This document shows, one piece after another, positions 73 to 26,950 of a stretch of 64,000 bases of DNA. The notes under the pieces were generated by a model. It saw only the letters and a program-made list of their open reading frames with translations. It was not told the origin of the DNA and did no database searches. Each line of letters begins with the position of its first letter. Position 1 is the first letter of the stretch. Made by a program: the position numbers and the translations under genes. This DNA comes from Blasia pusilla (taxonomy: Eukaryota): the NCBI GenBank assembly GCA_050084515.1, contig CM114271.1, positions 8,556,001 to 8,620,000 of the forward strand, read 5' to 3'.

Positions 73-1400
73 TTGGGGAACATTGCTCTCAAGACCCGTG
101 TTGTCGATGGCATGTCCTCATCCCTACGACTCAACGCATCTGAAATGACATTATCCTTCCTTGGCTTGTGGATCAATTCCACATTCATCAATACCAAGGT
201 ATCATGCAATCGCAGTTGTTTTGGGGTCACTCGATTCTGGGTGTCAAAATACTTGAGTGATACGCTATCGGTGAACACTTGAGTCCTGTGAAGTCTAAAG
301 TAGTGACGCCACTTCCTCGAGCAATGAACCATCGTGAACAACTCTTTCTCATGAGTGGGTCACCTCTTGTTGGTGTCACTAAGCTTCTTGCTCTCATAGG
401 CTACAGGTCTCCCTTCTTGTACCAACATTCTTGCAATCGCAAAATCACTAGCATCACTATGCACCTCAAACGATAAGACGAACTCTGGAAGCTTCAATAC
501 TGGCTCCTGCGATAGGATCTCCTTGACTCGGTTGAGCGCGTCATTCACTTATTGGGTCCACGTCATATTAGCGTACTTCGCGGTCCAATCCGTGAGAGGT
601 CTCACAATTCTTGAAAATTTCCTCACACAGGTTCTATAGAATTGAACCGTGCCGATGAATCTCTTCATTCCCTTCACTGTGGAAGGCAATTTTCATTCGA
701 TGATCAATTTCACCTTGTCCATATTTGAACTAACTCCATTTGCGCTAACCACATGAGCCAAGAACTTGATCTTGCGCAACCTGAACTCACCCTTTTCCAT
801 ATTTGCATACAAATTGTTTTCCCTTAGTTTCAACAACACCGCTCTCAAGTGTCGAATGTGCTCCTCTAGTGACTTTGAATAGATGAGTATATCATCTATG
901 TAGATGATAACGAACTCATGATCATGTGTCTCCTCATGGAAAATTGAGTTCATCAATGTGGTGAACGTCGGAGGCGCATTACATAGACTGAAGGGCATCA
1001 CCACAAACTCGAACGAGTCATATCTTGTTCTACATGCTGTCTTCTCCACATCCGCTTTAGAAATCCAAATCTGGTAATATCCTGACTTCAAGTCAATCCT
1101 ACTAAAGTATTTCGCCCCCAAAAGTCTATCAAAGAGGTCATCAATCCTTGACAGAGGGTAATTTTTTCTCACCGTCACCTTATTCAGCACACGATAATCC
1201 ACACAAAGTCCCATTTTTCCATCCTTCTTCTTCACACAGAGAACATGTGCTCCTTACGGTGACTTGCTGGTACTGATGTAGCCCTTCTCCAAGAGCTCAC
1301 TTAATTGCTTTTTCAAATCATCAAATTCCTCCTGATTCAATCTTTATAGGGCCTTGGAAGGTGGTTGAGATCCGGGAATGACCTATATCTTATGATCAAT
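73..1400 (-). pseudogene. Gypsy RT-RNase H (family A), disrupted
   Basis: LCVDYRVLNK, SRIDLKSGYYQI, VMPFSLCNAP and IYIDDILIYS motifs, plus RNase H DASD. Confidence 0.93.
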
Positions 1401-3198: not shown

Positions 3199-4056
3199 TG
3201 TGATACTTTCAACTTTCAAAATTTTGAGGATAGGCACAATTTTGTATCAAAAAGAGTACAAAAGTCTTCAGAAATGACTTTCAGAGCAGATAGGAAAGTA
3301 GGAAAGTTATGACTAGCGGATTCATAGGGATCACATGAAGAGTCAAGAGAACCGTAGATTACAGTAGTGTAAAGATCCCAAGAGGTGCCTACTTAGCCAG
3401 AAGCGCTTCAGATCCTTGGTACAGACCTTGTTTGAAAGGCTATTTAAAGATCATCAATGTAGTTCCCACTACCATTCCCTTAGGACATCCTTATGCTATA
3501 GGAATGGTCGAGAAAGGGAGCAGTACCCTCTCGCGCTTGTAAACACTTTGAAGCCTTCTTGCTCTTAATGGAATAGTAAAGACCTCATTTCTTCATTCTG
3601 ATGTGCAGCGTATATGCATGAGTGATCTGATTGGGTTTGCGGAGTGAGGAGTGAGGAGTGGATTGGAAGACCAGCTTTCACCAAAAGAAAAATCAATTGT
3701 GAGATGTGAGAAATATGTTTGATAGAGAGTAGCCTGCCAAGACGGATTGAGTTTTGAGAGTAGGAGAAGCCATCTAGTTGCTAAAATCTCTGTCAAGTTC
3801 TTTGGTATTGAGTGAGAATGTGCTTGAGTATTCGTCCTATTCCACTTGAGAGGACACATGGAAGGAAATCTTGGTACTTGAGAGAAGAAGAATGACATGA
3901 TGAATATTTGAATCAAATTTGTATACACACAATTATAATTTTTACATGATAACAACATACATTAAGCTCTCTTTTCAGATAATAGTGATCTTCTTGGGGA
4001 TTGAACTTCATAAATAATCATAAAAAGATCATTTTCTATTATCTTTGTACATTATA
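3199..4056 (+). mobile_element. Solo LTR related to family B, inserted in the family A gag
   Basis: Starts TGTGATAC; homologous to ~6380-7110; flanked by CCGGG (3194-3198) and CTGGG (4057-4061), a 5-bp TSD with one C>T change. Confidence 0.8.
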
Positions 4057-5897: not shown

Positions 5898-8800
5898 TGT
5901 GATATCCACAATTTTGTACTTTTGATGAAATATATCTTTTTATTGAACAAAGACTTGTATATACATTATGATTTTGATTATTATATATTATTATGGTGAG
6001 GAAGGAGTAAGATTAAAGTGAATCACGAAGCTCCAAGGACAAGGTAGAGAGATAGAAAATCAAGGATTTGCCTAAGAGGAGAGGAGAATAAAATAATGAA
6101 GTCTCTAGACCCAACAAGAAGCTTCGGAACGACAACAAAGCTCTATGAAGTGCTTTGCTCTATAACGAAGCATAAAGAAGCATGAAGAAGAAGAGAAAGA
6201 AATACAAAGCAGAAAGAACGAATCACCTAGAACAAGAACAAAGAATGGAGAGCTTCGTCTTCAGATTAGGAGAAAGAGCTTCGTCATCAAGCGAAGCAAA
6301 AGAGGTCCAGACTTAGAAGCGAAGCTAAGATTGACAGTGATTTCAAGCGACACATAGTTAGAAGAGTTAGAATAGGAAAAGACGCAACCCTTTGTATCAA
6401 ATTGGTAGTTATGACAGTTTTGTTCTGCGGATTCATAGGGATCTCAGGAAAAGCAAAGAGCACCATAGATCTAGGTAGTTACAAATGTTGAAGAGCCACC
6501 AGCTTCATAAAAAATGCTTCGAATCTTTGGATCATTCCTCCTTCAGAGAGTATGTAAGAAGCATAGAAGTAGCTATCATTATCATTCTCTTACGAAGTCC
6601 TCGTGCTATAGAAATGCTCCGAGCAAGGGAGTAGTACCCTCTTGAGCTTGTATACACTTTGAAGCTTTCTCATTCTTGATGGAGTAGTAAAGCAATCATT
6701 CATTCATTCTGATGTGCGATGCTTATGTCTGAGTATTATTTTTGGGTCTGCAGAGTGAAGAGTGAATCAGGAGAACCTTTATCATCAATGGAATAATCAA
6801 CATAAAGTTGGTAGGAAAACTGTTTGACAGAGAGTAGCCTGCCGAGACGGATTGAGTTCCAAAAGTAGGAGAAGCCAGCTTTCATGTTGAGGTCTCTGTG
6901 ATGTTTCTTGATATCGAGAGGAAATTTACCTGAACATGCTGTCAACTCCACTAGAGAGAATTGAGAAAAGAAACTTTGGTACTAAGAAAGATCCAAAGAT
7001 ATTGATAAGACATTGAATATAAATCATACACATTTAAATACAACTATTACAACAGAATTATAATTTCAAACTCTCTTTTCATCAAACAATGATCCTCTTG
7101 GGGATCGAACCATAAAATTTTTGGCGCCGCTGCGGGGGATCATAAGCTTTGTTGGAGAGGGAGAGAGACACATGGGGAATCCAAGAGTCGAGAAAGAAGC
7201 CTCATCTCCTAGAAGATCCAACCAGCTAGTTCTTACTGAAGACCATATGCTATCTCTAGCTATCCCCCTAAGACAATGGATGAAAGAAGATAACAACCGG
7301 TTTGCTGCATTGGTGCTAGAAAAGATATAACAATTAATTAGTATTGTCAAAGAACCAGTCGCCGAACGGTGCTTCGCCCATGAACTTCAGTTGTACTTGG
7401 TGATGACCCAGTACTTCTATTTATGGGAGGAAAACCGGGCAGGAAGATTAAGAGCACTTGCACACTCCTGTAGGCTTTAGGAATTAGGAAGATCTAATTT
7501 CCCTCCAATTTTCCTATGTATATTCATAAGCAAGAATTGACAACCGATGAGGTGCTGGATTGGTCACAAGTTACTCCCGTCCGCTTACCAAGAAAGAGCG
7601 GAACGGTTACTAGTGGAAGCCGCGAAGTCACCCTGCCACGCAAAGCAACCCCAAAGCAACATCCACATACTTCGGCTTCACAGAAGGATGTGGAGTTCAC
7701 CGAATTGCCAAGACCGTAGCGCGGCAGAGTTAATTTTGAAACACCCTCTGAAACAGAGCCCGCAACCCACGAGGACTCCAACAAGATGCCTCGTGCTAGC
7801 AATCATCGTCCTGCTCTACGTCTCATGTCCCAGACAGCCAACGATATGGTGTGGTTCCTGAATTTGACTGTCTTGGTCATGAATCAACTACAACAAGTTC
7901 TCCACCTGGAAGACACAACCGCGATGGACCAGTATTTACAAGCGCTTGATGACCTCAACTGTAGGGCCCAAGCTTCGTCAGAGAACAAAGCATAGCGCAA
8001 AATGGTAGAAACAAACCTTCAACTGCGGGATCAAGAACTCGAAGACACTACGACGACACTTTGCAAAGTTCAAAGCGACTTGGTCCAGAGTCAATACGAA
8101 GCACGGAACGCACGCCAATGGGAGAGCTTGGCGATTAACATGGAGTGTGGGGCTGATCAGTTAGCTTTGCAGGTCAAGGAAGCTTTGCAACTGATTCAAC
8201 AATACCGACACCAAGTGCATCGTATCAGCCACGAATTCAAGAAATTGGCCACACAAGAACATCAAGAAACAAACAAAGACTTAGTGGCACACATCTCGGA
8301 GGCTACGGGTAAGATCGTTGTCTTGGAGGCAGAACAGAAGCTGCTCAAAGAAGTGCAGTTAGACCCAAAAGATGTCAAGGAGTTCGTCGACAAAGCAGGC
8401 AAGAGTTTCGATTATCAGATGAGCGAGGAGATCGCCTATATCAACAAACATTGGAAGCGAAAATTTGACAACCATACCAAGTCTCTCCCGGAAGTTGTCC
8501 CCAACATCCCAATTACTCTTGAAGAACTCCCACTATTTACTCCATCCGATGTCTTAGTCCAGAACGAAGTAATAGGAAGCTTGCTTGTTGTTTACAAATG
8601 GCGAGAGAAAATGAAAAATCACACCCCCAACATTATCAACAAACCTTCCACTATTCATGGTCGTTTGGGGCCTTCACCTGAGTTTGATAGTTTAGATGAT
8701 ACTTTTTATGGAATTAGAAGAAACATCATGAAGTGTTCGCCGGGGCGGCTCACATTTGAGGGAGGGGGTATGTGATACCCATAATTTTGTACTTTTGAAG

Positions 8801-9977
8801 AATTACATCTTTTTATTCAAAGAAGACTTGTATATACATTATGATTTTGATATTATGGTTGCGTAGTAGAAGAATGAGTGAGATTGAAGTGAATCACGAA
8901 GCTTCAAGGACAAGGTAGAGAGATAGAAAATCAAGGATTTTCCTGAGAGGAGAGGAGAATAAAATAACGAAGTCTAAAGACCCAGCAAGAAGCTTCGAAA
9001 GGACAATGAAGCTCTGTTAAGACCTTGTCTATGAAGTGCTTCGCTCCTGAATGAAGCATGAAGCATGAAGAATAAGAGAAAGAAGTACTTCGCTCTTGAA
9101 CGAAGCACGAAGAACGAAGCACTTGGAACAAGAATAAAGAATGGAGCGCTTCGTCTTCGGATGAGGAGAAAGATCTTTGTCCTCAAGCGAAGCAAAAGAG
9201 GTCCAGACTTAGCAGCAAAGCAAAGCTAAGATTGATAGTGATTTCAAGCCACATATAGTTAGAACAGTTAGAATAGGAAAAGGCGCAACTCTTTGCATCA
9301 GATAGGTAGTTATGACAGTTTTGTTCTGCGGATTCATAGGGATCTTAGGAAAAGAGAAGAATACCATAGATCTAGGTAGTTACAAATGTTGAAGAGACAC
9401 CAGCTTCATCAAGAACGCTTAGAATCTTTGGAACACGCCTACTTCAGAGAGTATTTAAGAAACATGAAAGTAGCTATCATCATCATTCTTTCACGAAGTC
9501 CTTATGCTGTAGGAATGGTCCGAGCAAGGGAGTAGTACCCTCTCGTGCTTGTATACACTTTGAAGTTTTCTCATTCTTGATGGAGTAGTAAAGCACTCAT
9601 TCCTTCATTCTGATGTGCGATGCGTATGTCTGAGTATTCTTTTTGGTATGCAGAGTGAAGAGTGAATCAGGCGAACCTTTCTCATCAATGGAATAATCAA
9701 CATGGAGTTGTAGGAAATCTGTTTGACAGAGAGTAGCCTACCGAGACGGATTGAGTTCTGACAGTAGGAGAAGCCAGCTTTCTTGTTGAGATCTCTGTGA
9801 GGTTTCCTGATGTCGAGAGGAAATTTACCTGAGCATGCTATCAACTCCACTAGAGAGAATTGAGAAAAGAAACTTTGGTACTAAGAAAGATCCGAAGATA
9901 TTGATAAGACATTGAATCTAAATTATTCACACCTAAATACAACTATTATAACATAATTGTAATTTGGAACTCTCTTT
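5898..9977 (+). mobile_element. Non-autonomous LTR element, family B (Athila/Tat-like): LTR-PBS-single accessory ORF-PPT-LTR
   Basis: LTRs 5898-~7115 and 8771-9977 (3' LTR truncated by ~40 bp), both starting TGTGATA; PBS TGGCGCCGCTGCGGGG 7122-7137; PPT gagggagggggta 8758-8770; no gag or pol motifs in between. Confidence 0.88.
7172..8775 (+). pseudogene. Family B accessory ORF with coiled-coil C-terminal half, interrupted
   Basis: ATG 7172, then ORF pieces 7516-7719, 7786-7995 and 8002-8775; YEARNARQWESLA also found at 47473-47715 (-). Confidence 0.65.
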
Positions 9978-10715
9978 AGGAGGGGTCACTCGCACGGGAG
10001 CAGCTGCACCGTCTAGTCGGGTTGGTCCCATGTTCAACCCTGTGGTTGAGTTCTTTGCTGAGTTGAGGGCGAGCTACCAGGGGGTACACACGGAGAAGTT
10101 GCGGAGCATCCACGACTTCCAGAGGCACCCGAGTGAGAGTTTGCGTGAGGCTTACACTCGCTTGCATCGGTTGATCAACGTCACTAAGTGGGTGACAGAG
10201 GCTCATGCTATCCAGTCATGGTACGCGATTCTGGACCGGATCCTACGGACACGGGTGCGGGAGGGGTGCTTCTTATGAACACCTCCCCTACGTTGAGAGA
10301 TGTTTTTAGGACCGCCGAGAACATTGAGCGCAACATGGCGGAGGAGAGCGTAGCCACCATGGGTTCTGGGCGAGAGCAGTCACGATTGTCTACACTACCC
10401 GTGCAGCAACGTGGACTCCGAGATAGGTCGATTGTGGCACCATGAGCTCAAGGAGGATACCGGGAGGCCCTGCCCTAGAGACATGCGCCTTCATATGCGG
10501 CTCAGCAGCAGCCGCCTACTATTACTTTTTGGTCATGTGGTGGAGCCCATCATCAGCGCGATTGCACTCGTCATGCTCATGGACGTGTGCCTCAGCATGG
10601 AGAAGGAGATGGTGTTGCACCAAGAGGTTATCAGTGTGACTATTGTCAAAGGTATGGTCATACACGTGCCAAGTGTTTCAGTCTACATCCTGAGTTACGT
10701 CCGGACTGATGGCTA
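9978..10715 (+). pseudogene. gag with two CCHC zinc knuckles (family M)
   Basis: FQRHPSESLREAYTRL capsid-like motif; (F)WSCGGAHHQRDC at ~10527 and CDYCQRYGHTRAKC at ~10635. Confidence 0.8.
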
Positions 10716-11372
10716 GAGAGGGCACCAGAGCGAGTAGTCGGTCCGGATGGGCCTAGAGATCGTGCACCAAGTGGTCCCGTTGGGGGACGAGGAGCTGGAG
10801 TTGCCCGACAGGGTGGTGGAGCGGCCCGTGGAGGAGGTAGAGTCCTACTACCTAGACGTGTCGAAGGAGATGATGGGCGTGAGGCTAGGATGGCTGATCA
10901 GATACATCAGCAACAGGAGCAGATTGCCGCTATGGCATTCAGATTATCCGATGCCGGATCCAAGGCATCAACATCATATGGAGCAGCGAGAGATATGGAG
11001 GATCCTGGTTGGATGTGCGGGGTTGCCTAGATGGAGGCCGCCGCAGTTGTGACGCGTGGAGCAGCCGTAAAGTTGGATCCACAGCGAGGGGAAGCCAAGA
11101 AATAGACTAGTCTCCCTCAATCTTTCACGTTGTCCAAGGCGATGAGGACCCCATCGATGGGTCCTGATCAGAGTTCCTGGAGAGTTGGTGTGCAGGCACG
11201 GAGGGCGATGGGAGAAGAGAGTCCGATGACTCCTATTGTCGATGCTCAGGAGGGGCATGTGTCGAGCACGTTGTTGGGGGCGGCCACCATTGTGTACCGC
11301 ACTCCTTTATTTTCTGCTTCCGATGTTATGACGTTGGGGGGTACGGCTGCCGAGGCTTTTTGACTAGCCGCT

Positions 11373-12000
11373 ATGCTACGTGAGCGTGGAGTTGGAATTC
11401 TTGCATCACGTTCAGAGGTGATTGCAAAGGAGGTGATGGACCTGCCCTTGGAGCGGATGCTCGGGCCGTCCATATCAGATTCATGGCAGGCTGCGGCTGC
11501 TAGGATGGCGGAGATGCCTGCTAGACCCGCGATAGAGCGTGCCATGGCTTCTCCTAGTGTTGTGTTGCAGGATAAACGAGGAGAGGTCTTCCAGTTGATG
11601 AGTCCCAGAGGTAGAGCTTTTAGTCCGCAACGTGTCTTGTTGGATTCAGGAGTGCAACCCCTAATGTTGGGGAAAGCATCATTCAGAAGATTGGGCTTGA
11701 CGAGAGCCAATGTGGAGCATTGTCCATTCCGGATACAGACATCCTTGGGTGGAGCGAGTACTACACACTATATCACCCGACAGGAGGTCGTGGTGAGGAT
11801 TCGCCCGGGACATCCTACACATGAGTCCGTGGTGCGAGCCAAGGCGATAGTGACTTATGCAGAGTCCTACGACGTCTTGGTTGGTGGAGCAGTGTTATAC
11901 CCGATGGGGTTTTCCCTGGATTACTGGGAGATGTCAGCATCCTACAGATCAGGATGGCAGTCAAGTGATGGGTGCCTTAGCTCATTACCCGTTCGATTCA
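11373..12000 (+). pseudogene. Retroviral-like aspartic protease (family M)
   Basis: RVLLDSG...YDVLVGG in ORF 11373-12368. Confidence 0.8.
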
Positions 12001-12358
12001 CATGTGCAGTGATCGAGCAACGGCCAGGAGAGATGGCGACCTTAGCAGTATTTAGCAGTGCCATCACTTGGCCTAGTGATTTGATTGAGGGACATGTCCA
12101 TGCAGAGGATACACCCATTCCTGACATTTCTATGGAGAGGAGTGTTATGGTAGCCGCATCATTCCATGGAGGAGAGGTGCCGTTGTGGGGCTCGACTGAG
12201 GAGCTTCGACGATTGGCAGATGAGCACATGCAAACCGCGTGGAGCAAGGCGTTTGCATCGGAGCATGACGGGTCTGAGGAACCCGAGGTAGCAAGGAGTG
12301 CTACGATGACACCCTTGGATACCACACCCTTTTTTGGTGTACCCCAGAGGAGGGTATT

Positions 12359-13290
12359 CGAGTGTTAGATCTCTTTGGAGGGATTACCACCGGGTTAGCT
12401 GTTGTTTTTCAGGTAGGAGTACAAGTGCAGCAGTACCCGTATGTGGAGAGTGATGATGTTGCAAGGCGCATCTCACTACAACATGTGGCGCAATTACCAC
12501 TATGTTTTCCCGACTTATTGTTTGCGTACATGGTACAGGGGATCCAGAGTTCCCTACCAAGGGATATTTCGTTGTTGGGGGCGCAGGACTTAGACCGATT
12601 AGGCACCATTGATTTGGTCATTGCCGGTTGGCCATATTAGGGCGAATCGAGTCTTGGACGAGGCAGCGGGTTGGCTAACACTCGGTCCAGGTTGTTTTGG
12701 GTGATGTTGAGGGTTTAGTCTCATTCTCCATCCTATATTTTGGAGAATGATCCGATCTTAGGAGACTCCATGTCACGGGTGGTAACGAGTGCTCATCAGG
12801 TGCATGACTGGATCGGCCCAGCAATGTTCTTGGATGCGGCGAGTGTAGGTTCTAGAGCCCATCGCCCGCGTCTATGGTGGACCAACTTGGTGTCCCATGC
12901 GATGTTACGGAGGGCGTATGCGAGAGTGGAGCGCCCCTCCCATTTGTTAGTGGATTCCATTCTGGATCCAAGTCTTCGCTCACAAGCAGTGAGGCACGAT
13001 GATCGGCCACCATTGACTATGGTCAACAGGGTAGGCAAGCCGCAGGCAGCCTTTCCAACGTTTGTGAGTTTTCCCGCTTCTTATGCATACAAGGAGGCTG
13101 GTCTTGGCTTGGTTTGGGATGACCACGTTCAGAGGTTGGTGGAGCCCAACGCCGACGAGAGAGAGCGGGCGATGGGATTTCCCACAAGAGTGACGGCAGT
13201 ACCGTCAGTATCAGAGGCATCACGACGCCATGTCTTGGGTCACGCGATGGACCTGAACAACTTGACATGGATCTTCAGCTTGGGAGTGGC
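12359..13290 (+). pseudogene. DNMT3-like DNA (cytosine-5) methyltransferase domain within gypsy pol
   Basis: Motifs in order: I LDLFGG (12365); II YVE; III DI; IV IDLVIAGWPY*G (degenerate WPCQG, 12626-12643); VI YILEND (12743); VIII AHRPRLWWTN (12857); IX ERAMGFP (~13163); X RRHVLGHAM (~13222). Confidence 0.9.
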
Positions 13291-13611
13291 TGAGCAACGT
13301 CGGATGAGATCGCGACAAATCACAACAGTTGTGTTGGTGAGCCCCATGCCTATCGAGACGATGGAGGCAGTGGCTAGGGGCGAGACCCGAGGAGATCGAC
13401 ACACCAGGGGAGATCAAGAGAGACACCCTTGGACTTCTTGGGATGTTTTGCAGGTACGCCAGGAGATGAGAGCGTGGTTCCGGGCACTGCATGTGGAGGA
13501 GATCAGAGTTTGCATTTGGCTGAAGGAGAGCGGTCGAGTGTTGTTGTTCGAGACGGGGTCGCACCATAGCAACCACCGATATCCGCGCCGGAGAGTCCTA
13601 CCGTAGTCACG

Positions 13612-15040
13612 ATGGAGACTTGGGAGCCAGATATGGGCCCAAAGTTGACAGGAGGAGAGCGGCGCCGAATACATGAGTTCCTCTGGAGTTATAGGAGTTG
13701 CTTTGCCTTTAGCATGGAGGATTTGGGTACGCTGAAGGGACTAGGGATCCGCATTGAGTTGTCGAGTGATACGCCGATCTTCCGAAGACCCTACACGTAT
13801 AGTGATATGGAGAGGGCTGTGATTTAGAGTAGGAGCCAGGACTTGGTTGGAGCAGGACTAGTGGAGATGTCGGATGGGGAGTATGCATCTGCCACTGTCA
13901 TGCCCGTCAAGAAGGATGTGCATGGCAACTGGACGGATATGCGGATGTGTGGGAATTATCAAACTATCAATCGGCAGACGAAGTCCGATAGGTATGCCAT
14001 GCCCACCCCTGAGGAGATCTTTGATACGATTGGTCATGCAAAGGTTTTGATTCATTGATTTATGAGCCGGATACATCATCACCGCACTATCGATTGGAGG
14101 ACGAGCGTAAGACGGCATCGATCCTCAGGGGAAGGATTGTTTGTACCACTGGCGATTCTTACCATTTCGGTTCAAGAACGTCCCGGATGAGTTTCAAAGG
14201 GTCATGGATAGGATCTTGGCTGGTGTGGATTTTTCTAGGTGTTATATTGATGACATCGTAGTCTTTAGCGCCACGGTTGAGGAGCACGAGCGACATCTCA
14301 GGAGGTGTTTCGACGATTGCAATTACATGGGCTGAAGCTACATCCAGGCAAGTGCAAGTTCTTTTACGACTAGATTGAGTACTTGGGTCATACAAGATAC
14401 CCAATGGGTCTTGGTGTTCAGCAGACAAAGGTAGAGGCTATCTCACGCATTCCACGCCTACAGATATGAGCCGTGTTCGGGCATTCATGGGATTGGAAAA
14501 CTTCTATCGGCGGTACGTCAAGGGATTCAGTTCAATTGCGAGGACGTTGACCTTGCTGACCAAGGTGGATCACGAGTGGCACTGGGGAGATGAGAAGGAG
14601 TGAGCATTTCAGTTGCTCAAGGACAGGTTGACGTGCGCACCCATCTTGAGGAGACCAATCAAGGGGCGTCCTTTCCAATTGCACCCATATTGGAGCATGT
14701 TGGGGCTTGGAGCGGTGCTCACCCAGCATGATGATGAGGGTAGAGAGTTTGTGGTGGCTTACGCTAGCCGCTCAAACAATGTTGGAGAGGTGAAGTATAG
14801 CTCGTATGAGGGTGAGTGCTTGGCTGCGGTGTGGGCTATCGCGCATTTCAGGTGTTACTTATTCGGCAATCCCTTTACCATCATCACTGATCATCAACCA
14901 CTAAAGTGGTTGATGGAGTCCGACAAGCTTACAAGGAAACTTGCGAGATGGGCTTTGTGATTGCAGGATTATGATTTTTAGGTGGTACATAGACCTGGGA
15001 TGCTCAACCAGGATGCATATGGGTTGAGTCGTAACCCATG
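13612..15040 (+). pseudogene. Gypsy RT and RNase H (family M), frameshifted
   Basis: YASATVMPVKK, MRMCGNY, LPFRFKN, CYIDDIVVFS; LGAVLTQ...YSSYEGECLA...TDHQPL. Confidence 0.93.
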
Positions 15041-15379
15041 CCCGAGTCAACAAGATGCGATTGGAGCTCGATGGCATGGAGAGAGTGATGAGGATTCAGT
15101 GCCAGGATGGCACGCGTCGGCCTATTTAGGCATGTTGGCTATGGAGAGCCAGAGTGTGGAGACTTCAATGGCGAGGTCTAGTGGAGAGTCCAACAGATGG
15201 CCGAGATGTTCATGATGATGGAGTAGTCTTGGAGTGCCTTCGTACTGGCAGCGTTGCGAGCACCGTGGGTGCTAGAGAGCGGGATCGGATCCTACAGCGG
15301 GCCAGACGGTTCCGTTGGGAGGGGACACATGTTTTGGGGGTTTGGGAGGATGGAAAAGTACGCGTAGTGCCGTATCCTT

Positions 15380-16500
15380 CGCATAGAGCACGACTAGTGC
15401 AGCATGCCCACGAGGAGTTGGATTACTTTGGGATGAAGCGGACGTACAGCTTGCTCCAGATTCAGTATTGGTGGCGAGGCTTGCAGACTGACGTTCAACA
15501 GTTTGTTGCCAGGTGCATGGTGTGTGATCGGGTCCGAGCATCGTTCAATGCTCCAACTCCACAGTTGCATCCATTACCGATCTTGGGCTTAGGGTATAGA
15601 TGGAGATTGTATTTTGCAAGACCTTTGCCTTTGACGGAGCGTCACAGTCGTTATGTGTTGGTGATGGTCGAGCACTTCTCGAAGTGGATCGAGTTGGTTG
15701 CATTGCTTGACAAAGCGAGTGAGGGAGTAGCTTATGCCTTCCTTGAAAGAGTGTTGAGTCATTATGGCGCACCAGCTGAGGTGTTGACAGACTAGGGTAT
15801 TGAGTTTTGCAGTGAGTTCCAGGCCTTGTGTGATCAGGCGTTGATCGACCATCGCACGACTTTGTGAGATCATCCTGAGGCGGATGGATTAGCGGAGAGA
15901 GTTGTGCAGACCGTGAAGAGGGGTTTATGCAAGTATGGCTTGCAGAGAGGTCACCTAGGAGATTGGGACCTCCAGTTGCCCTGGTTGGCGATGGGATACA
16001 GATTCAGCATGCAAGCATCCTTAGCGTCTTTTTCCCCATACTTGCTACTTTATGGCTGAGAGCCAGATTTACCTGCAGCCATTCGTCGAGATGCTGGTGA
16101 GGTGTTGGACCTTGATGACCTAGATGTATGGATACGAGCATATTCTCAGAGGGCTAAGTTGTTTCGGAGAGTGATGCCCATGGTGTTCGAGAACTTGGCG
16201 ATTGCGCAGCATCGAGATACGTTGAGGTATGCGACTATTCGGGATGGTGGTTATCGACCAACTATCTCGAGGTTTCATCAAGAAGATTATGTCTACTTGC
16301 AGCAGACGGCACCCACGACGTTGGATGTGACTGTAGGGCGCACTATCTTGAGAGTGCATGACGTTTTTCCATCCAATGTTCTCTTGCTGGAGGGACACGA
16401 TGGTATGGTATGGAAGGACCATGTGCGTAATTGTGCGTCATGTCACCTTCCTAACATTGATGGTACAGTAGATCCGAGCTTAGCAGTAGTTTCTGCAGGC
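15380..16500 (+). pseudogene. Integrase (family M)
   Basis: H...YWW...CMVC zinc finger; VMVEHFSKW; VLTD; HPEADGLAER. Confidence 0.9.
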
Positions 16501-16647
16501 TTGCGTTGTATGTTGTGTGGTTCTGCCCGTGGTACAGCCACGATGCTAGTCCGTGATGGATGTTCGTGAGGTTGGCGTATGGCATGTCTGACGCCACCTC
16601 TCACTAGGATTCCTCGGGGACAATGGATGTGTCCTAGATATACATAG
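16501..16647 (+). pseudogene. C-terminal PHD finger of pol, degenerate
   Basis: Read through TGA: CMLCGSARGTATMLV(R)DGCS*GW(R)MACLTPPLTRIPRGQWMCPR(Y)T*, which has C4HC3 spacing and the PHD L.PPL..IP.G.W.CP signature. Confidence 0.85.
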
Positions 16648-16833
16648 AGGAGATACTAGGTAGGTTTTGATTCCAACTTTTTCTGTGATATGGATGACAG
16701 AAAGGCGACTAAGGATGGGGCCACATGAGCACCCGGCCTTCTTGCTCTTAGCGTCCGAGAGATGTATGTCATGGTAGGTAGGGATAGATGGCTATCTGGA
16801 GTTAGAGGGACCTAACCACCAGCTAGGGGGGCG

Positions 16834-17601
16834 ATTGGAGATATTTTAGTACTTCTTGTCTCCTTATTTGGATGCCATGAGTTAGCATGGGATCGTGTGT
16901 GTTTGTGTGTGTGTTCGGTGACAGCGATGTATGTTGTGTAGCAATGTGTATGCGCACGACAGTTGTCACGTCTAGGATAGATCGGTGAGATCTAGTAGAG
17001 CGCCTTCGTGAGTAGTGGAGGACACACTCAATAGGTCGAGGATGACCTGTTGAAGCCCCGAGAAACTTGAGAGAGCAGGTTTCCCCTTCGTTTTGGCTCA
17101 TTTGGAGTCATATTGAGGAACTTACTATTTTAGGTAAGTACCATCTTGAGTATATGATCGACTTTGTATTTTTGGTAAGTGGCCCTTGACCTCCTACATC
17201 AAGTCAAGAGCCAAGGAGGTGACTTGGGAGAATAGGTTATCATGGAGAGAGCTTGCCAGAGGGGAGGGGTATACCTCAAGGAGAGAGAGCTTGAGAGCTC
17301 ATTCTCTGTTTGTTGAACTTCTTGGCATGAGGCGGCGGAGCTATGGTCCCTTGCCTTGTGAGTGTAACCCGAGCCTCTCATTAGGAGAGTGGGTTTGGTT
17401 TAACATGAGAGAGAGTGCACACCTTTGAGAGCTATGGTGTGAGATGGTGTAGAGAGAAATTGGATCTTACTTTATTGGAGATATTTTAGTACTTCTTGTC
17501 TCGTTGTTTGGATGCCATGAGTTAGCATGGGATCATGCGTGTTTGTGTGTGTGCTCGGTGACAGCGATGTATGTTGTGTAGCGATGTGTATGCGCACGAC
17601 A
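16834..17601 (+). repeat. 3' LTR (16964-17601) preceded by a 128-bp duplicate of its own 3' end (16834-16961)
   Basis: Near-identical 128-bp direct repeats at 16834-16961 and 17474-17601; junction GACA-gt-TGTC. Confidence 0.8.
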
Positions 17602-19290
17602 AGGACTTAGTAGGGAACTCTGTCTATAAAATTCAGAGGCTTGTATGCTTTACAGAGTACCACCCACTTCACCAGTGGAACGAGTTTTCTTACACAATCT
17701 TGTTGCGCAATATCTCCTTCAAATATGAGTCCAAAATATTGAGTCTTGTATCACTAGCATGGACTTACCTGCATGAGTGTATTCATAGGAAAATATTCCG
17801 CCATGAATCATGCATTGTTGATGAAATTCAAAGGCATGCAACTTGTAACCTTTGGACCCAAGTTCATGCCACTAAAATCATATCGAAGGCAATGGAGGTT
17901 ATTGGACCTCATATGAAATTTGAGCTATGTATTAAGTCCATTCCTGCTGTTAGTACACCATCTACCCAAGAAGGCAGAACCAACAAGTTTACAAATGAGC
18001 CAGATCTTTCACTGCATTTATTGAATGTTGAACAACATGATCTATACCATAAGATCCAAGATCTATCCTCTGGTTTAGTGTTGATCACCGTCCCACCAAG
18101 TTGTGGTAAGACATTCTTTACACATTTCATGCAGTCATACTGGTCGAGTCTCTTTGTTCCCACGTTGCTCCCTGCTACAACAGGAATTGTTGCACTTCGG
18201 CTGCACAACACTGTTGTCACTGTTCATTCAGCATTTGTTATACCAATAATGGGCGACTTACCTTCCATGCATACAACCTCAGACCAATACATGTGCTTAA
18301 GAGACGCAAAAATTATCATTATAGATGAGTGTTCCATGCTAACGCCCCGCATGCTACAGATTGTTGCCCTAAGGTTGCATCAGGTGTCTCCGTCATCCAG
18401 CCTTAGCCCTTTCTTGACTAAACTTGTAATCTTATTAGGTGATCTCTGCCAGTTATCCCCCATATGCCGCCACAACAAAGGCCCTATCTGCTATTTTTGT
18501 CACATTTCTTCCTCACCATTCTACCCTACTATGGAAATATATACCCTTGCCACACCAATGAGGCATGTTGATGACCATGAATTCCTAAGTTTCTTGTCTC
18601 ACATATGAAGGGATTTACAAACAAAGGACTTGATAGATAGTTGTCTTGGTAGGTGCTTTGTTGATGAAAATACCGCCTCTGATTATATAGGCAAAAACAT
18701 TCATATTATTTGTACACACCGTATCGATGTCCAATTATTCAACCTTATTGCACTTCGCATACTATTTGGCGCAGTTGAGATCTTCCCAATACATGTAACC
18801 ACATATGCTCCTCCCGATCCACACTTTAACGAATGGATATCCGATACTCAATTTCATGAGTTGCAATTTTTAGCTATTGGTTGCACAGTATTGCTCACAA
18901 CAAACATTGACATGCCAAGTCAAGCTACGAACGATGCACAAGCTACCGTTCTAGATTGTACGTACAAACAAGATGACCTTATTGCTATAATAGTGAGCAT
19001 CCACTCAAGCTGCGCTACTGTCCGGCTTACCCAAACAATGTTTGCTACTCTAAGATGCGGAGCCAACGAGAAATACCACAAACATACATTTTCCCTAGTT
19101 CTTGGCTATACCATGACAAGACACAAGAGTCAAGGCCTCACAATCAAAGGCAAGTGCCTACTCAACATCAGATCATCGTTTGCACCTGGGCTAACTTATG
19201 TAATGCTATCTAGAGTCCAAAGTAGGTCACAACTACAAATCCTCGGTAACCTACACCCTGAGGATTTCAAGGTCTTTAATCAGCAGAGTC
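17602..19290 (+). pseudogene. Helitron-type PIF1 helicase relic
   Basis: Degenerate Walker A (VPPSCGKT), ATTGIVA..TVHSAF, IIIDECSML, LLGDLCQLSPI, MRH, TRHKSQGLT and YVMLSRV in ORFs 17571-18608 and 18630-19508, separated by a stop; upstream YTILL...TYLHEC resembles the RepHel linker. Confidence 0.88.
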
Positions 19291-22200
19291 ATGGCAATTG
19301 TTTAGTGGGTGCTAGAACAATGGAAATCAAAGATGGTTCACTAAGAAGACGTGCAAGGATGTCAAGTCTACCAGCTAGCGCCTCATCTGTACCAGACATT
19401 GTTGGAAAATTAAGTGCGACACCACATTCTGCTCCCATCTTGCTTAGCGATAGTGGTTCAGATGATTACCATAAGCCTACTCTGAATATGCAAGGTGTTA
19501 AGCCATAGTTTGATCAACACATTCATCAAGAGACTTAGGTTTGTACAAGCATTTCTGTGCAATAATTATGTTTTCGGTGTTATCAATAGGCTGAACTGAA
19601 AATAACACCTTCAGTTACCAAAGTCCTATCGACTTTGCAAAGATGATACTCGATGACATGCCTACCTTACCCGAAAAGCCCACTGTTCAATTTGTACCAC
19701 CAACCGATGCACAACTTTGATATGCAAACAACCTTGGGTTATACCACTCCCATTATTATAGAGGAATCACAAGCCGTCTCATTAGCCACATGATAGACCA
19801 ACGCAAATCGTGGGCAGCTTCATTCAGGGAATTAAGAACGCAGCCACTAGTCACAGGTACTTATTTCACTCAACTGCTTTTTAGCTATGTTGTTGTAAGA
19901 GCTTTTTCTGTGCATCTATCTAAATTTCTCTGACAATATACTACGCACACTCAGGGATACAAAAGGAGATCATGGCTCACAAGCTGGGTTGAGTTCAATG
20001 AATCAGAGCTTACACACCAACAAGTTGTAGTAAATTATGCAAGATTTACTTGAGGAATAAAGCCCGATCAGTTCTAGGATCTTTGTGTTATCATGAAGCT
20101 CCCTCTTGAAATGTTGATAAGTCTGTCGTCCGCAAAGACTGCCCACCTTCTTGACAGTATAAAAATAGCCCGGGAAGCTGGAGCAATTTCTGAGTACCCA
20201 TCTGATGCAACTTAAATTTTTCCTTCGTCACATTCAACTTCTTCTTCACAATATACAGATGATCTCCTACCTGTTCACTGTCTCCAGCCTCATTTTTATA
20301 GCGAGGGCACTTCATACCAAGGTTTGAAACTGCCAAAATCGCCGAGTAAACGACAGTGCCTTTGACAATTATGTGGCCATGTAAGTGTAAATTGTAAAGG
20401 TGATTCCACTTATCGCCTCTCTGCTCTTCTTCTTGAGACACTTACTTTCGCTCTAATTCTCACCCATTTATTGTATTTCATTGTTTGAACCAGGTATGCA
20501 ACTTCGGCAAGAAGAATTCACAAAATCCTCACCAGTATTGAACCTTGCTTGCTTTTTGCTACGCTTTCTTGAGAGGCAGATCCTCTCTCTCCATGCATTC
20601 AGATCCTTAAATTTTCATGCTCAAGTGCATGAGTCATTTTAGAAGTCGTTACATGGCTAGGCATTGTCTTAGAACTGATTCTGCATTATATGCACACCTA
20701 CATGGTGTCCAATTTTTGCTACCCAATTTCGGTCATATTTTGCGACATGTGTGTAATGTGATTTGCAGTGGTTGTTCCTACATGCTGAGCCCATCTCCAG
20801 CCTTGGCAACTTCTATGCAAGCATATGTTCATTTTCATGAATAAAAACCCCGTTGTCATTGTCTTGTTTAACTGTGTGCACTTTACTTTTTCAAGTACGT
20901 TAATTTCCTGTCTTGAGTCTTCATTGCTTCATGTGCTATACAGAAATGCACGACTGGTGTTTAATCACATGTACATCTTCTATTCGACACATGTTTGAGT
21001 TTAGCAGCATATACACATTTTCCATGTTACTTCCCACTTGTCTTGTGATGTTGTTTTACAAGGGAAAAACTGCAGGCGGAAGCCAAACAAGTACCTACCG
21101 TACTCCTGTCTCGCACAACAATGCAACTCGCAACAGACAACGAAATCGACGCCGCTCAATCAACATAGAGGTTGAGCTGCCAGCCATGGGCGACCCTATA
21201 TACTGCAGCGATAGTATCCCAATATCGTTATTTGATGCTGTACTAAAAAAACATAGGTATTGTTCAAGATCGCCTAGATGAATCTGAGGAACATAATGAT
21301 ATTCTACGCACTGTTATGCATTCGGTAGCGGATGACGGCAAGTACAATGTAGAGTAGTACCAAGTCAAGTCAGTTCAGAAAAAGCTACTCCTACTTCAAA
21401 AACATTTCCTGGACAACTATAGTTGTAATTCTGACCTCCATAGCTTTATTTCAGATTTGCAAGGCTTGTGTGAAGGCAAGAAGCCTGGTCCTATGTAAAA
21501 ATATAGTTTCAGCATTGTTGCTCATGCAAAAGTTAGCTCTCCTTCACTTATGTAGACTTATGTAGACTTATACATACGTTCATAATTGTCTATTCCTCTC
21601 TAAATCTGTGGCTGCCGAGTATGCCGTCAGGTTCACAAACTTGAGATACTTGTGGCTAGTGCCACCATGTTATCTTCCATGTGTTTTTGAGTATGAGCTT
21701 GCCTACATAATCTGAAGCGTTTACAGCTCATCTGATGTTCTCGTGCAATGCTAGAATGTTTGATTACACCACAACCTGTTGCGTGCCAATCATCTCTGTT
21801 TGTTTGCCTTGGTTTTACTTTGAGATCTGCTTACTTTACTTGCAACCTTTGATTTCATAGAAACCACTTGCACACATTCCACTTTATACACACATTTAAC
21901 AAGCACTTTGCAATCATCATCTTACTGAACTTAATTGTTGGCTTTCACATGTCGGCCTGTAATAGCTATGTTTACTAACAATAGATTGCATTTTTATAAC
22001 AAAGCTTGCTCATTGGTTGCATTGCACAGTGTGCATTGCCAGGCCGCATACTTGTGAAGGATCGGTTTGTTTCGCTGCATTATTCGTTAGAAAATTGGTC
22101 TGGTCACAAGGGTGAGGTTGATACGACCACTCACACATGCAATCCGGCTCGTCAATGGATAAATGTCACCTAGGGCCAGATCGCATGCATGGCCTCACGG

Positions 22201-23208: not shown

Positions 23209-23748
23209 CTAGTGCAAAAATGATGCCTGGTAGGCAGGTGGGGGAGGTGGGAGACCACTTCCAAACTGGTAACTACTATATGTGGCAGAAGGATTGCTAT
23301 ATCCACCTGAGCCATAAACAGGTGAACCTAAACCCTCTGCAGAGTAAAGATACGAGCTAGAAAGCGAAACAGGACTGCGACTTCCACCAGTATAGGTGGC
23401 GGAGTATCCCCCTTGGGCTCGCCTGTCGTAGTTGCTTTGGGCGGCAAGGCTGTAAGAAGAGACGCCAACACCACCTGCATACTGGCCCCTCTCAGAACCA
23501 CGGTAGTAGTTCCTTTCCTGGGCGGCTGAGCCTCCTCCATAGCCACCTCCACTGCCACCACTAGCTCTGGGACGTTTAGTTTGAGCTTTCACAGCAACGG
23601 CAGCTCGCTTCCTATCTGACTTTGCTTTCTCTAGTTGTGCCACACGCTTCTGCAATGGAGCAGAAGGATACTGACTCTCAAGTTGGTATTCCTCGATACA
23701 TTTTAGAACTGCTTTCAGTGCGCCAAGTTCCTTCATGGTAGCGTCATT
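23209..23748 (-). CDS. FRL: FRIGIDA-like protein, exon 3
   Basis: AG acceptor at 23750-23749; KELGALKAVLKCIEEYQLES...LQKRVAQLEKAK FRIGIDA C-terminal motif; G/Y/S-rich tail; TAG stop. Confidence 0.92.
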   Translation of the reverse strand, partial: NDATMKELGALKAVLKCIEEYQLESQYPSAPLQKRVAQLEKAKSDRKRAAVAVKAQTKRPRASGGSGGGYGGGSAAQERNYYRGSERGQYAGGVGVSSYSLAAQSNYDRRAQGGYSATYTGGSRSPVSLSSSYLYSAEGLGSPVYGSGGYSNPSATYSSYQFGSGLPPPPPAYQASFLH

Positions 23749-23857
23749 CTGAAGGAGACAATTCAGGACGTACTGTTAGAACCCGATGCTAGAATCAGGT
23801 GGTAAAAAAAATTAGGACACAATCGTCTAAAAATTTACTGATACTTGGGGGAAGTAC

Positions 23858-24033
23858 CTGTGCTGCTGCAGAACTATTCCCATTCTTCAGTATATTTTGT
23901 GCTGTCTTTCGAGCTTCTTTAAGGTAAGCCTTTAAAAGGGGCACAGGCTGCACACGATCCATAATTCCGAATGAATGGGCGAAAGACAAAGCTTCAATTT
24001 GTTTGCCTTCTTTGGCCAACCTGTCCACCACAT
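23858..24033 (-). CDS. FRL: FRIGIDA-like protein, exon 2
   Basis: AG/GT boundaries with consistent phase; DVVDRLAKEGKQIEAL...PVPLLKAYLKEARK. Confidence 0.92.
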
Positions 24034-24759
24034 CTGTCGACACACACAGAGAAAATTAAGGCCTAAGACCGAGACAGTCTACATATCGACTTGGCCCACT
24101 ACGTTTCATGCGACGCCCCATCATAGAGAGCAAGAGGGAGGAAGAAGAATGAGAGGCGTGGGGGTATGCTGAGAGGAGGACGACGAGGAGGTAGTGGGAG
24201 GATACAAGGGTGGCGATGGTTATCAAGCACCTGGGTGGACAAGCGGAGCTCTTTGGAAGATTTGCTTACCTTGCCTCTACAGAGTGCAATCAAGACAACA
24301 TTCCAGTAAAATGCTTTCTGCGACTCCGCACTAACCTCATACCTCGTTAGCTTAAATCTGAAACGGTTCTCGACTCAAGGAGGGAGGAGGAAAGAATGAT
24401 CATCTTCCAAGTGCTAAAGGAGACACTCTTGACCTCTGTGCAGCGAAAATCAAGGGATCCCAATAGTGCCTCAGAGAAGCCTAGGACTCTAAGGCTACAA
24501 AACTTCCAACGAGTCAGATCTGTTCTTAGGAACAGCACACTTACAACATGAGTGTCAAGGAACAGGATTGCCAGGAGACAGCGTTGCTGTAAGATGTAAG
24601 CTATAATTCAAGCATAAAATAGGGAAAATTAATACGCCAGCCCAACATGGATCAGCATGCTACAGATCCTCATCAGGGAAAGCCAAGAGGGGCAATCCAG
24701 AGAGTGGCCCAGCATGTGCCTCGGCCTCGACTTAAGGCCGACTTGAAAGGGACACCAAC

Positions 24760-25990
24760 CTGGTATCTTGGCCGACAGTCCAAGGGACCGGCAGAGCGCA
24801 GGTGACTGCCTGCGCCGCGCAACAGCAGTGACGAGTTTGCACAGCTCATCATCATTATACTCCGAAGCAATACCAAAAGTTGCCAGTAGCTGTAGAAAAG
24901 CCTGAGCATCCAAAGAATTGCCAGACGAGGCATCTCCATGGATTGTCATCTTGGACCTCCATTGGTCTGCGACTTCCTTGGCCGACTCCTTGATATTGGA
25001 GGGCACCACGGGGTGATCCGCTCCTAGTTCAGGATCAGCCAACACCACAGCAAGGCACTCCAGAAGGAGAATGCAAGCACGGCGATTAGCCGATGCTCCT
25101 GATTCCTTCTTGTCTGCCCCTTGGTTGCTTGCGATGGTCCCTGGCTCTGGGTGGTGGTAGCCATCCAACGCACTAAGGACCAAGCGTGCAGGGTCAATCG
25201 CACACTGAAGTGCAGAGGGCAGTTCAGCGCGTAAGGCACCAACATCTTTCCGATGGTCGACGATATACTTTCTCAGCCCATCACCATCCATATTCTCGCA
25301 CAGTGACTTAAGCTGTGGACGCACTCTCACCTCGGGCACTACTGCTTTCAGAGCGGGAGTGCCAGCAGTATCGGTCTTGCCAGCATCCTTGCTAGCGGCA
25401 CCGTTAGCCGCTTCCTCTTTAACAGAGACAGTTACAGTTGCAACGGGAGCTCCAGAAGGCTTTGGCGATGCAACATCTACCTCCATGGCCATAGCACTAC
25501 TAGGGCCGTTTGCTGCCACGGGGGTTTCTGCCTTGATGGTTTCAGCTGCATGATTGACAGCGGGCGTCTCAATAATGGCGTTCTGAGCGGCCTTAGCAGC
25601 GGCTTCAGCTTCAAGCCGTGATCGTTCTTCCAACCACTTGCGTTTCTCCTCGAAAATAGCTGCAATAGCAGAGTCTTTCTGTTCTTGCACACGAGACAAT
25701 GATGCTTGCTCTCTGGCGGAAACGGCCTCTTCCCGTTTGTCAAGGGCCTCTTGTGTTTCTTTGGTTTTGGCCTCAAAAGACTTCTCCTTCGCAGCCAGAT
25801 CTTCCAAACGCTTCTGCACGGCTATTTCAACTTCTGCAAAGTGTTCTTCGAGCTCTTTCCATTCAACAGTGCAGCTTGCCAAAGCAGCTCTCTGAGTCTC
25901 AAGATCGTTAAAGGCTTTCTGCAGCCGTTCCTTCCTTTCAGGAACCGACTCCATGGCTACAGCAAGAGGATCCTCTGTTACTGCCGTCAT
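24760..25990 (-). CDS. FRL: FRIGIDA-like protein, exon 1 (spliced CDS 1947 nt, 648 aa)
   Basis: ATG 25990; N-terminal coiled coil; LKSLCENMDGDGL, DPARLVLSAL, RRACILLLE, AQAFLQLLATFGI; GT donor at 24759. Confidence 0.93.
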
Positions 25991-25999
25991 GCGTCGACA

Positions 26000-26950
26000 G
26001 ATCTATCACAGGTATAGAAACGAGAGCACAAAATAATTCTTTCTGGTATGGACTCCACACCGAAAGACTAAACTGTTCCGACGTGATGTAAAACGCATAA
26101 ACCCTAACAGCTACCCAGGCTCTCTCCGACTCTACACAGCATGACAAACCAAAATGCAAGGACACGGTCTGCTGTTCGCCCAGAGTGATTAGCCCAGACC
26201 CTATTTGCGGAGAACCCGTCTCGCAGAACCGGTGAAATTGCTATCCGATCTAGAAATCAATCGGTACCGAAGATGTTCTCAGAGCGCGGGAAGAAGAAGG
26301 TGTCACATAGACAGAAATGCAAATGCAACAACTACGAAAAGGAAGACCCTGATTGTGGCATCAATAGACGACCCAAATCTGGGCGATTAGAGAAAAGACG
26401 CGACGACACTCGGACAGAACTGCCACTCTCGTCTGTGGAGGTAAGTGCCACAGCACTCTAGTGACGAATCTGCTCCTCTGCACGCTCTCGCTCTCCCTGT
26501 CGCACCTCTTTGATAATAGCACGACCGCTGGACTAAGACAATAGCCCCCCCGCGCTCGTACCCAGAGCAACGAGCGAAAGCAAGGTCGGTGGGCGTAACA
26601 GATAGGGCAAACTTTGACCGTCCGATCTTTCATCGTGCGTCACTCAAGCCTCTCGCCCCGCTGGAGTACGCCGACGTTGCGAACCGCCTAACATTCCAAG
26701 CAATACGTACGCACGCTTTCATTCCCCAATATGATCTAACTTGCTCATCCATACAAAATGGACATCCTTCCCAGGCCTTGTGGATTCTTTTGCCCGGGCT
26801 GCCCGGGAACTTAGCACATAAGCCGCAAAGGTTTTCAGCGGTTGCGGTAGTTTTGCGGTGGTCATTCCGGGTCGTCCGGAGAAGATATTTTCCCGGATTC
26901 GAACGCATGCTAGTTGAATGAAGTGAATCGATCCTTTGTGGTTTCGCAAT
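26000..26950 (-). promoter_or_regulatory. Putative 5' UTR/promoter of the FRIGIDA-like gene (CpG-rich)
   Basis: Immediately upstream of the ATG; visibly richer in CG than the flanking decayed repeats. Confidence 0.45.

Follow-up and report, generated by a model that had tools for sequence, protein, structure and literature searches.

Why should a transposon carry an enzyme of the kind that its host uses to silence it? This puzzle has so far been studied only in dinoflagellates and in one charophyte alga, and it is raised here by a liverwort. In a 64,000-nucleotide stretch of the Blasia pusilla genome (GenBank assembly GCA_050084515.1, contig CM114271.1, positions 8,556,001 to 8,620,000; hereafter the window, whose own numbering is used throughout), positions 9978-17601 of the forward strand had been predicted, from the sequence alone, to be a Gypsy retrotransposon encoding its own DNMT3-like DNA methyltransferase inside pol. 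Our analysis indicates that this is very probably a copy, dead and truncated at its 5' end, from a retrotransposon family in which a DNMT3-like methyltransferase is a fixed part of the polyprotein. Its kind is already known from KnitGypsy-Dnmt3, a Gypsy-type element with a DNMT3-like domain in Klebsormidium nitens (de Mendoza et al. 2018, Nat Commun 9:1341, PMC5890265). The present analysis adds land plants to the known hosts and shows how large the family is; a leaky stop codon, a PHD finger and exactly placed termini are also new.

The methyltransferase (MT) domain, a DNMT3-like cytosine-5 (C5) type, lies at 12338-13300 (+) and was delimited by phmmer searches of PDB and by its motifs. A read-through translation of 12278-13603, with X at two stops, matched DNMT3A (2qrv_A) at E=4.3e-8, and the first 29 of 35 rows in this search were DNMT3A, B or C, the remainder being DRM chains. 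All of the C5 methyltransferase motifs that had been predicted between protease and reverse transcriptase (RT) were confirmed at their coordinates on the forward strand: motif I, LDLFGG (12365-12382); motif IV, VIAGWPY* (12617-12640; family consensus VIAGWPCQG); motif VI, ILEND (12737-12751); motif VIII, AHRPRLWWTN (12857-12886); motif IX, ERERAMGF (13157-13180); and motif X, RRHVLGHAMD (13223-13252). This order (I, IV, VI, VIII, IX, X) is canonical and colinear with DNMT3A, with none of the circular permutation found in DRM enzymes, where VI-X precede I-V; motifs VIII-X align colinearly with DNMT3A, as the claim that they were DNMT3-like and not DRM-permuted had held. Two details required correction. 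The "GWP-x-x-G" read as motif IV was correctly placed but is really a ruined PCQG (CCA TAT TAG GGC), and the EN of motif VI is present but reads END here, as opposed to ENV in the family. A search with Pfam PF00145, suggested as a check, returned only E=0.033 for the read-through of this copy and no match for its separate open reading frame (ORF) pieces, whereas intact relatives exceeded the cut-off of 22 bits with scores of 46-51.

To what kind of enzyme the domain belongs is best judged from those intact relatives. A family profile, searched against PDB, matched DNMT3A at 2.3e-21 (79 bits), tobacco DRM at 1e-12, DRM2 at 7e-10, M.HaeIII at 1e-7 (34 bits), DNMT2 at 3e-6 and M.HhaI with 33 bits; no DNMT1 chain was found at E<=0.01 in this search. 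In a Foldseek search with the AlphaFold model of one relative (P0002), all rows among the matches listed (to rank 48) were DNMT3A, B or C, with target template-modelling (TM) scores of ~0.70 and E ~1e-13. Judged by these PDB and Foldseek rankings, and not by a tree, the methyltransferase is DNMT3-like. The catalytic domain of mammalian DNMT3A/3B/3C provides the best match in both sequence and fold, with the same motif order and visibly similar motifs VIII-X. The two differ in that identity is ~20%, motif IV is PCQG in the family versus PCN in the mammalian enzymes, and the stretch between motifs VIII and IX is longer in the family and poorly modelled. The family also lacks PWWP and ADD: these N-terminal reader domains were absent from the polyproteins scanned with Pfam, which carry a PHD finger after the integrase instead. 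Plant DRM2 appears as distant kin within the DNMT3 superfamily; DRM enzymes have a circularly permuted motif order, and the DRM alignment covers only profile positions 13-139, which fall on the C-terminal part of DRM.

A different source is conceivable, namely a bacterial, phage or giant-virus C5 methyltransferase that only resembles DNMT3. The PCQG of motif IV is as in bacterial enzymes, a bacterial-looking protein (P0075) was matched at E=7e-6, the protein-atlas neighbours include phage clusters (labels: PF00145, Streptophyta or phage), and the Klebsormidium copies were placed in "a more divergent clade" (de Mendoza 2018, PMC5890265). Set against this are the scores of the profile, which more than double from the two bacterial enzymes M.HaeIII and M.HhaI to DNMT3A, the uniform DNMT3 rows among the Foldseek matches listed, and the alignment of motifs VIII-X with DNMT3A. 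We regard such an origin as improbable and still entertain it because motif IV is of the bacterial type.

The copy at 9978-17601 is itself dead and cannot make the enzyme. The position of the catalytic Cys in motif IV is occupied by Tyr (TAT), followed at once by a TAG stop (12638-12640); a second stop lies within the domain at 12716-12718, and motif VI has changed from ENV to END. The whole element contains ~20 in-frame stops, and its tblastn high-scoring segment pairs run through frames 1,0,2,1,2,1,0,1, that is, at least seven frame changes. The 5' repeat, the leader and the start of gag are missing, since the alignment with the Marchantia gag starts only near its residue 112. Conserved catalytic residues are therefore a property of the family and not of this copy, and release of the enzyme from this copy's polyprotein, as had been proposed, is excluded by the lost Cys, the two stops in the domain, the frame changes and the missing 5' end. 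The ratio of observed to expected CpG was 0.74 in the element and 0.61 for the window overall, which does not clearly point to decay driven by methylation.

Three further pieces in the window are 65-72% identical to this copy at the DNA level, and each holds some methyltransferase sequence. A second decayed copy extends from the gag start to MT motif I (32245-35988, +; 65-70% identity by blastn, and tblastn); a third decayed piece covers MT motif IV to the end of the domain (43815-44715, -; 72% identity by blastn), with Arg at the Cys position; and a fourth runs from protease to MT motif VI (56380-57208, +; blastn and tblastn), with the frame disturbed at the Cys codon. Two stretches that resemble repeat A (described below), 28942-29237 and 30039-30188, lie 950 bases apart and 2-3 kb 5' of the gag start of the second copy, whose 5' end may have been duplicated or interrupted.

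These pieces bear directly on whether the methyltransferase was captured incidentally, as a fragment of host DNMT3 or a nested insertion without a role in one copy. Such an accident would suit a decayed copy lying in a nest of other transposons. However, the domain occurs at the same place in the three other pieces, it is in frame in uninterrupted polyproteins of up to 2324 amino acids, it was found in 268 of the 272 proteins that we scanned (P0001-P0272), and neither a target duplication of its own nor an intron, the two signs of a single-copy insertion that had been named, bounds it. Multi-copy, in-frame conservation refutes incidental capture, to which we assign next to no probability. The methyltransferase is a fixed feature of the family and not an accident of one copy; in addition to the four pieces in the window, in-frame intact relatives occur in liverworts, Sphagnum and Scenedesmus and on many metagenome contigs.

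Protein searches returned 75 near-length and 27 longer homologues with 40-61% identity, including many gene models of Marchantia polymorpha and proteins of Calypogeia fissa, Riccia sorocarpa and several Sphagnum species; among them are models with intact GWPCQG and ENV. Marchantia Mp_4g09160 (P0078, 1278 amino acids), for example, is a gag-protease-MT protein with intact LDLFGG, GWPCQG, ENV, RAHRARLWWTN, ERERAMGF and RRQVLGQAMD, and P0103 is a single ORF of 2324 amino acids that encodes gag with CCHC knuckles, protease (PR), MT, RT, RNase H (RH) and integrase (INT), with a PF00145 score of 49.7 bits against the cut-off of 22. Across 12 sequences that are 42-85% identical, 51 columns are invariant, including G-W-P-x-Q-G and E-N. 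Searched against 1.84 billion representatives, a profile of 12 intact domains gave 14798 protein matches at E<=1e-3 and, at the stricter E<=1e-30, matches in 489 clusters; the best 150 all scored at least 245 bits, and many were polyproteins of 1000-3456 amino acids. One of them, P0156, is annotated as "pol [Scenedesmus sp. PABB004]", so the methyltransferase module reaches chlorophytes. Among the matches with an organism name, none came from Klebsormidium.

Several of these models (Mp_4g09160 and others) are annotated as ordinary genes in public proteomes, as would be expected if they were domesticated host genes and the copy in the window their pseudogene. Yet the models carry gag, protease, RT, RNase H and integrase, there are many copies per genome, terminal repeats with TG...CA ends and target duplications are present, and DNA contig depth over the element in the window is very high. 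This transposon anatomy refutes domestication, which we consider very improbable.

The anatomy can be followed along the whole element in the window. Stop-to-stop ORFs and tblastn with intact relatives show that it follows the same order as Marchantia P0078 (residue 112 onwards), P0084 and, in relative L080, ORF2. A gag remnant with two CCHC zinc knuckles occupies 9979-11363 (+; tblastn, P0078 residues 112 to ~600); its match to Pfam Retrotrans_gag is weak, and two CX2CX4HX4C strings are present in the read-through of 10269-11363. The active site of an aspartic protease, LLDSG, follows at 11637-11651 (+; relatives match Asp_protease_2). Beyond the inactivated MT domain and a conserved stop come remnants of RT (13612-14457, +; tblastn identity of 72-74% to P0084 and 55-63% to L080 ORF2, with a weak RVT_1 match), of RNase H (14454-15158, +; tblastn, and RT_RNaseH at E=2.9e-31 on ORF 14604-14957) and of a DDE integrase with an H2C2 zinc domain and an rve core (15205-16470, +; tblastn to L080 ORF2, and Integrase_H2C2 at E=1.2e-13 and rve at E=1e-4 on ORF 15130-15792). 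At the C-terminus of the integrase lies a PHD finger remnant (16507-16638, +; PF00628, E=4.9e-5); read through a stop as X it scores 23.7 bits against a cut-off of 24, and the finger is intact in L080 (ORF2 residues 990-1034), P0129 and P0156. The order gag-PR-MT-RT-RH-INT, with PR-RT-RH-INT downstream of gag and the methyltransferase between PR and RT, is that of Ty3/Gypsy (Metaviridae-like) elements, and confirms the predicted type. Tyrosine recombinase (PF00589), a trait of DIRS elements, was absent from the Pfam tables of the window and of the relatives examined, in which Integrase_H2C2 and rve are present. As for the predicted bounds, 17601 is a true 3' terminus and 9978 is a truncation point.

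The 3' end of the element consists of a polypurine tract (AGGGGGG, 16825-16831, +), repeat B1 (16834-16961, +; 95% identical to 17474-17601), repeat A2 (16962-17473, +) and repeat B2 (17474-17601, +), which is the 3' terminus and ends in ...CGCACGACA. A2 is the internal copy of the lost 5' terminal repeat A1, and A proper begins with TGTCACG at 16964. Of the terminal traits, the window shows no more than the 3' CA and the polypurine tract. The complete arrangement was taken from metagenome elements: all three that were examined (L076, L073 and L038) read A1, coding region, B1, A2, B2, with A1 of ~340 bp and B1 of ~115 bp, and have ends of the form 5'-T(G/A)TCATG...CA(C/T)(G/A)ACA-3'. The complete relatives (three of three) have TG...CA ends and are flanked by target duplications of 4 bp (CATA, AAGG and TCTC). 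The polypurine tract ACCAGCTAGGGGGG stands directly 5' of B1 in these three elements, as in the window, and its context in the window, ACCACCAGCTAGGGGGG, is common to them. Intact members are ~9.2 kb long, with the termini 5'-TGTCATG...CATGACA-3'. The usual Ty3/Gypsy trait of two identical long terminal repeats (LTRs) is not found: the element opens with A and closes with B, in the arrangement A...B-A-B. At the joint of B1 and A2, the end of B is followed by 2-3 bases and the start of A, and the joint therefore holds a copy of both termini. DIRS repeats have been described as "A-coding region-B-A-B", and KnitGypsy-Dnmt3 as having this same repeat structure with Gypsy domains (de Mendoza 2018, PMC5890265). 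This unusual shared trait is the main reason for filing the family in the window with KnitGypsy-Dnmt3.

A second structural feature concerns the boundary between MT and RT, where an in-frame stop occurs at the same codon in divergent lineages. The conserved ORF1/ORF2 stop of the element in the window is at 13567-13575 (+) in the context TAG CAA CCA, which is also that of L048; L080 has TAG CAG TTA, and Marchantia P0078 and P0077 terminate at this point. When 17 copies of a metagenome subfamily were inspected, four had lost the frame and one diverged before the site; all 12 that keep the frame have TAG or TAA CAA CCC. UAG_CAR_YYA is the tobamovirus type I read-through motif (Firth and Brierley 2012, PMC3542737), and by simple base odds CAR-YYA is expected after a given stop in 1/512 of cases. 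We infer that gag-PR-MT forms ORF1 and RT-RH-INT-PHD forms ORF2, the two being joined by read-through. The intact layout would thus be A1, 5' untranslated region, ORF1, a leaky UAG stop of tobamovirus type, ORF2, polypurine tract and B1-A2-B2. Because it lies upstream of the conserved stop, the methyltransferase appears to belong to ORF1 and not to the RT-RH-INT part; "inside pol" was correct in placing it between protease and RT but not in grouping it with the latter.

Among the 268 domain-bearing proteins, the MT preceded RT, as in the window, in only 18, whereas in 102 it followed RT-RNase H and preceded the integrase (58 RT-MT-INT, 19 RT-MT and 25 MT-INT); in the remaining 148 the domain stood by itself. 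The second architecture, RT-RH-MT-INT-PHD (P0156, P0129, P0099), is thus the commoner one in public data, and was confirmed by Pfam for Scenedesmus P0156 and for P0129. A FastTree phylogeny of 187 domains, composed of transposon-borne domains only and weakly rooted on a single bacterial-like outgroup, placed the domain from the window in a clade of 24 leaves with Marchantia and Calypogeia (support 1.0). The RT-RH-MT-INT forms all grouped together, in a clade of 124 (support 0.857) that sits within a grade of PR-MT-RT forms. The proposed dN/dS check (nonsynonymous over synonymous substitution rates) was run in one metagenome subfamily; more distant intact pairs would be saturated. The median pairwise Nei-Gojobori value for the methyltransferase was 0.63 (118 pairs from 16 copies, two near-identical pairs having been dropped); for 15 copies (101 pairs), the medians were 0.61 for the methyltransferase versus 0.46 for RT in the same copies.

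As described, KnitGypsy-Dnmt3 shares with the liverwort family a non-permuted DNMT3-like domain in an intron-free polyprotein ORF, A-coding-B-A-B repeats, signs of purifying selection and a streptophyte host. The host here is a land plant, and the likeness is drawn from the described architecture and not from sequence. The leaky stop, the PHD finger, the terminal inverted ends and the 4-bp duplications are seen here and do not figure in the available text on KnitGypsy-Dnmt3, in which "PHD" occurs 0 times. SymbioDIRS-Dnmt3 of Symbiodinium likewise has a DNMT3-like domain in a retrotransposon polyprotein, the A-coding-B-A-B arrangement and two domain orders within the group; it is a DIRS element with a tyrosine recombinase, whereas the liverwort family has an rve DDE integrase, Gypsy RT/RNase H and 4-bp duplications. 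Chromoviruses carry a chromodomain at the C-terminus of the integrase; the liverwort family has a PHD finger there, plus the methyltransferase.

Several points weigh against the reading of the family as a Gypsy-DNMT3 lineage with a working enzyme. That it is of the same lineage as KnitGypsy-Dnmt3 is probable from shared architecture and PDB ranking, not from a tree, and the same two lines, again not a tree, point to descent from a host DNMT3. The PCQG of motif IV is bacterial-like, as opposed to PCN in DNMT3. The AlphaFold model of P0002 is middling, with a mean predicted local distance difference test (pLDDT) score of 59.2 and a confident core at residues 80-290. Values of dN/dS near 0.6 represent moderate constraint, in which selection is mixed with the neutral decay of dead copies. 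Read-through is suggested by codon context only, and P0103, P0122 and P0096 have no stop at the site. Catalysis by family members is predicted; expressed in yeast, the domain of KnitGypsy-Dnmt3 produced no methylation, in an assay that its authors called inconclusive (PMC5890265). Finally, a dead copy says nothing about present function at this locus.

If intact members work as their layout suggests, ORF1 would be made in bulk, putting the methyltransferase at gag level, and occasional read-through of the stop would add RT, RNase H and integrase. The protease would cleave the polyprotein products. The B1-A2 junction, carrying both termini, would let full ends be rebuilt, by analogy with what has been proposed for DIRS-like elements; the integrase would insert the linear complementary DNA (cDNA), perhaps guided to chromatin by the PHD finger; and, hypothetically, the methyltransferase would methylate the freshly made cDNA or the site of insertion.

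The last step has a competitor: in intact members, the domain may act on RNA, serve as a DNA-binding or targeting module, or act on host DNA in trans, instead of on the element's own DNA. In addition to the yeast result with KnitGypsy-Dnmt3, RNA methylation has been raised by the same authors for a LINE-borne enzyme (de Mendoza 2018, PMC5890265), and a place in ORF1 with gag would set the enzyme beside packaged RNA. Conversely, the full set of DNA C5 methyltransferase catalytic motifs is conserved, SymbioDIRS-Dnmt3 enzymes methylate CG in yeast (de Mendoza 2018, PMC5890265), and DNMT2, which acts on RNA, matches the family profile far more weakly than DNMT3A does. We consider these other roles unlikely, though with a real share of the probability. 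A bolder reading seems to us possible, somewhat short of an even chance: an undescribed, large and partly active Gypsy-type family in liverworts and mosses, with a gag-level DNMT3-like enzyme 5' of a leaky stop and a PHD finger on its integrase, would choose its chromatin target and write methylation on its own cDNA or insertion site. On this reading the module would have changed place once within pol (PR-MT-RT becoming RT-RH-MT-INT), would have spread among green algae and would rank among the commonest transposon-borne epigenetic enzymes.

The statement in the original prediction that a DNMT-carrying retrotransposon occurs in a charophyte holds, in the form of KnitGypsy-Dnmt3, as does the land-plant host. 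A 2026 preprint (10.64898/2026.05.21.726589) mentions "streptophytes (Gypsy-DNMT3)". In the literature searched, we found no publication on elements of this kind from liverworts, mosses or any other land plant, consistent with the remark that no well-characterized land-plant example was known; the supplements of the 2018, 2025 and 2026 papers may list bryophyte copies. With the family present in liverworts and mosses, and with some intact copies listed as genes in the annotation of Marchantia polymorpha, the question now reaches a genetically tractable land plant for which methylomes, mutants and transposition assays are available, and the leaky stop and the PHD finger are concrete, testable parts of a mechanism. 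There is also a warning for annotation: some of what is counted as "DNMT3" or "C-5 methylase" genes in the genomes of bryophytes and algae consists of transposon ORFs.

Sibling copies of the element are transcribed. RNA reads on 8000-20000 numbered 287, 369 and 344 in three runs that bear the same species label as the DNA run best matching the stretch, all within 8802-17623, with peak depth over 16421-17623 and none in 17624-20000 in any of the three; the few 5' of 9978 fall on a neighbouring LTR element. The reads were attributed to siblings because ~90% are 95-99% alike with consistent differences. First mates are mostly on the minus strand, which, given a usual stranded library, implies sense RNA. 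Past 17601 the sequences that the reads enter vary (agreement 0.55), as a true 3' terminus at different insertion sites would give; at 17473 they exit A2 into a different, fairly consistent sequence. Read joints 16833>17474 and 17599>16973 were considered as circles or deletions and rejected, being read as sibling reads placed on the wrong one of the two B copies or on the junction of B and A. In all three runs, 13-18 reads match 12183-12212 over these 30 bases alone and are flanked on either side by foreign sequence that is the same from read to read (agreement 0.99-1); this piece seems to be part of an abundant transcript from elsewhere.

The truncated 5' end adjoins an unrelated, short LTR element (5898-9977, +) with its own polypurine tract and 1.2-kb LTRs (5898-7078 and 8771-9977) that are 87% identical; a third related LTR lies at 3287-4014. 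No target duplication was found around this LTR element, sought to see whether it had split the methyltransferase-bearing one, and tblastn found no upstream gag piece of the latter. Directly 3' of the methyltransferase-bearing element, 17562-19508 (+) contains two adjoining ORFs in the same frame, split by one stop; the first encodes a PIF1-like helicase domain (PF05970, E 2.3e-15) and is probably derived from a Helitron. An apparently intact FRIGIDA-like host gene, split by an intron into two ORF pieces, occupies 23209-26002 (-); its protein is 92% identical to those of M. polymorpha (MPTK1_1g06900) and M. paleacea, 90% to that of Riccia fluitans, 74% to that of Calypogeia and ~64% to those of mosses. 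Judged by this gene, the host would be a liverwort of the Marchantiales distinct from the species compared, and no moss. Lastly, Gypsy-type RT/RNase H pieces at 126-1343 (-) and 63539-63994 (-) are only 25-38% identical to the methyltransferase family, and a remnant of copia-type gag (PF14223) lies at 49955-50524 (-).

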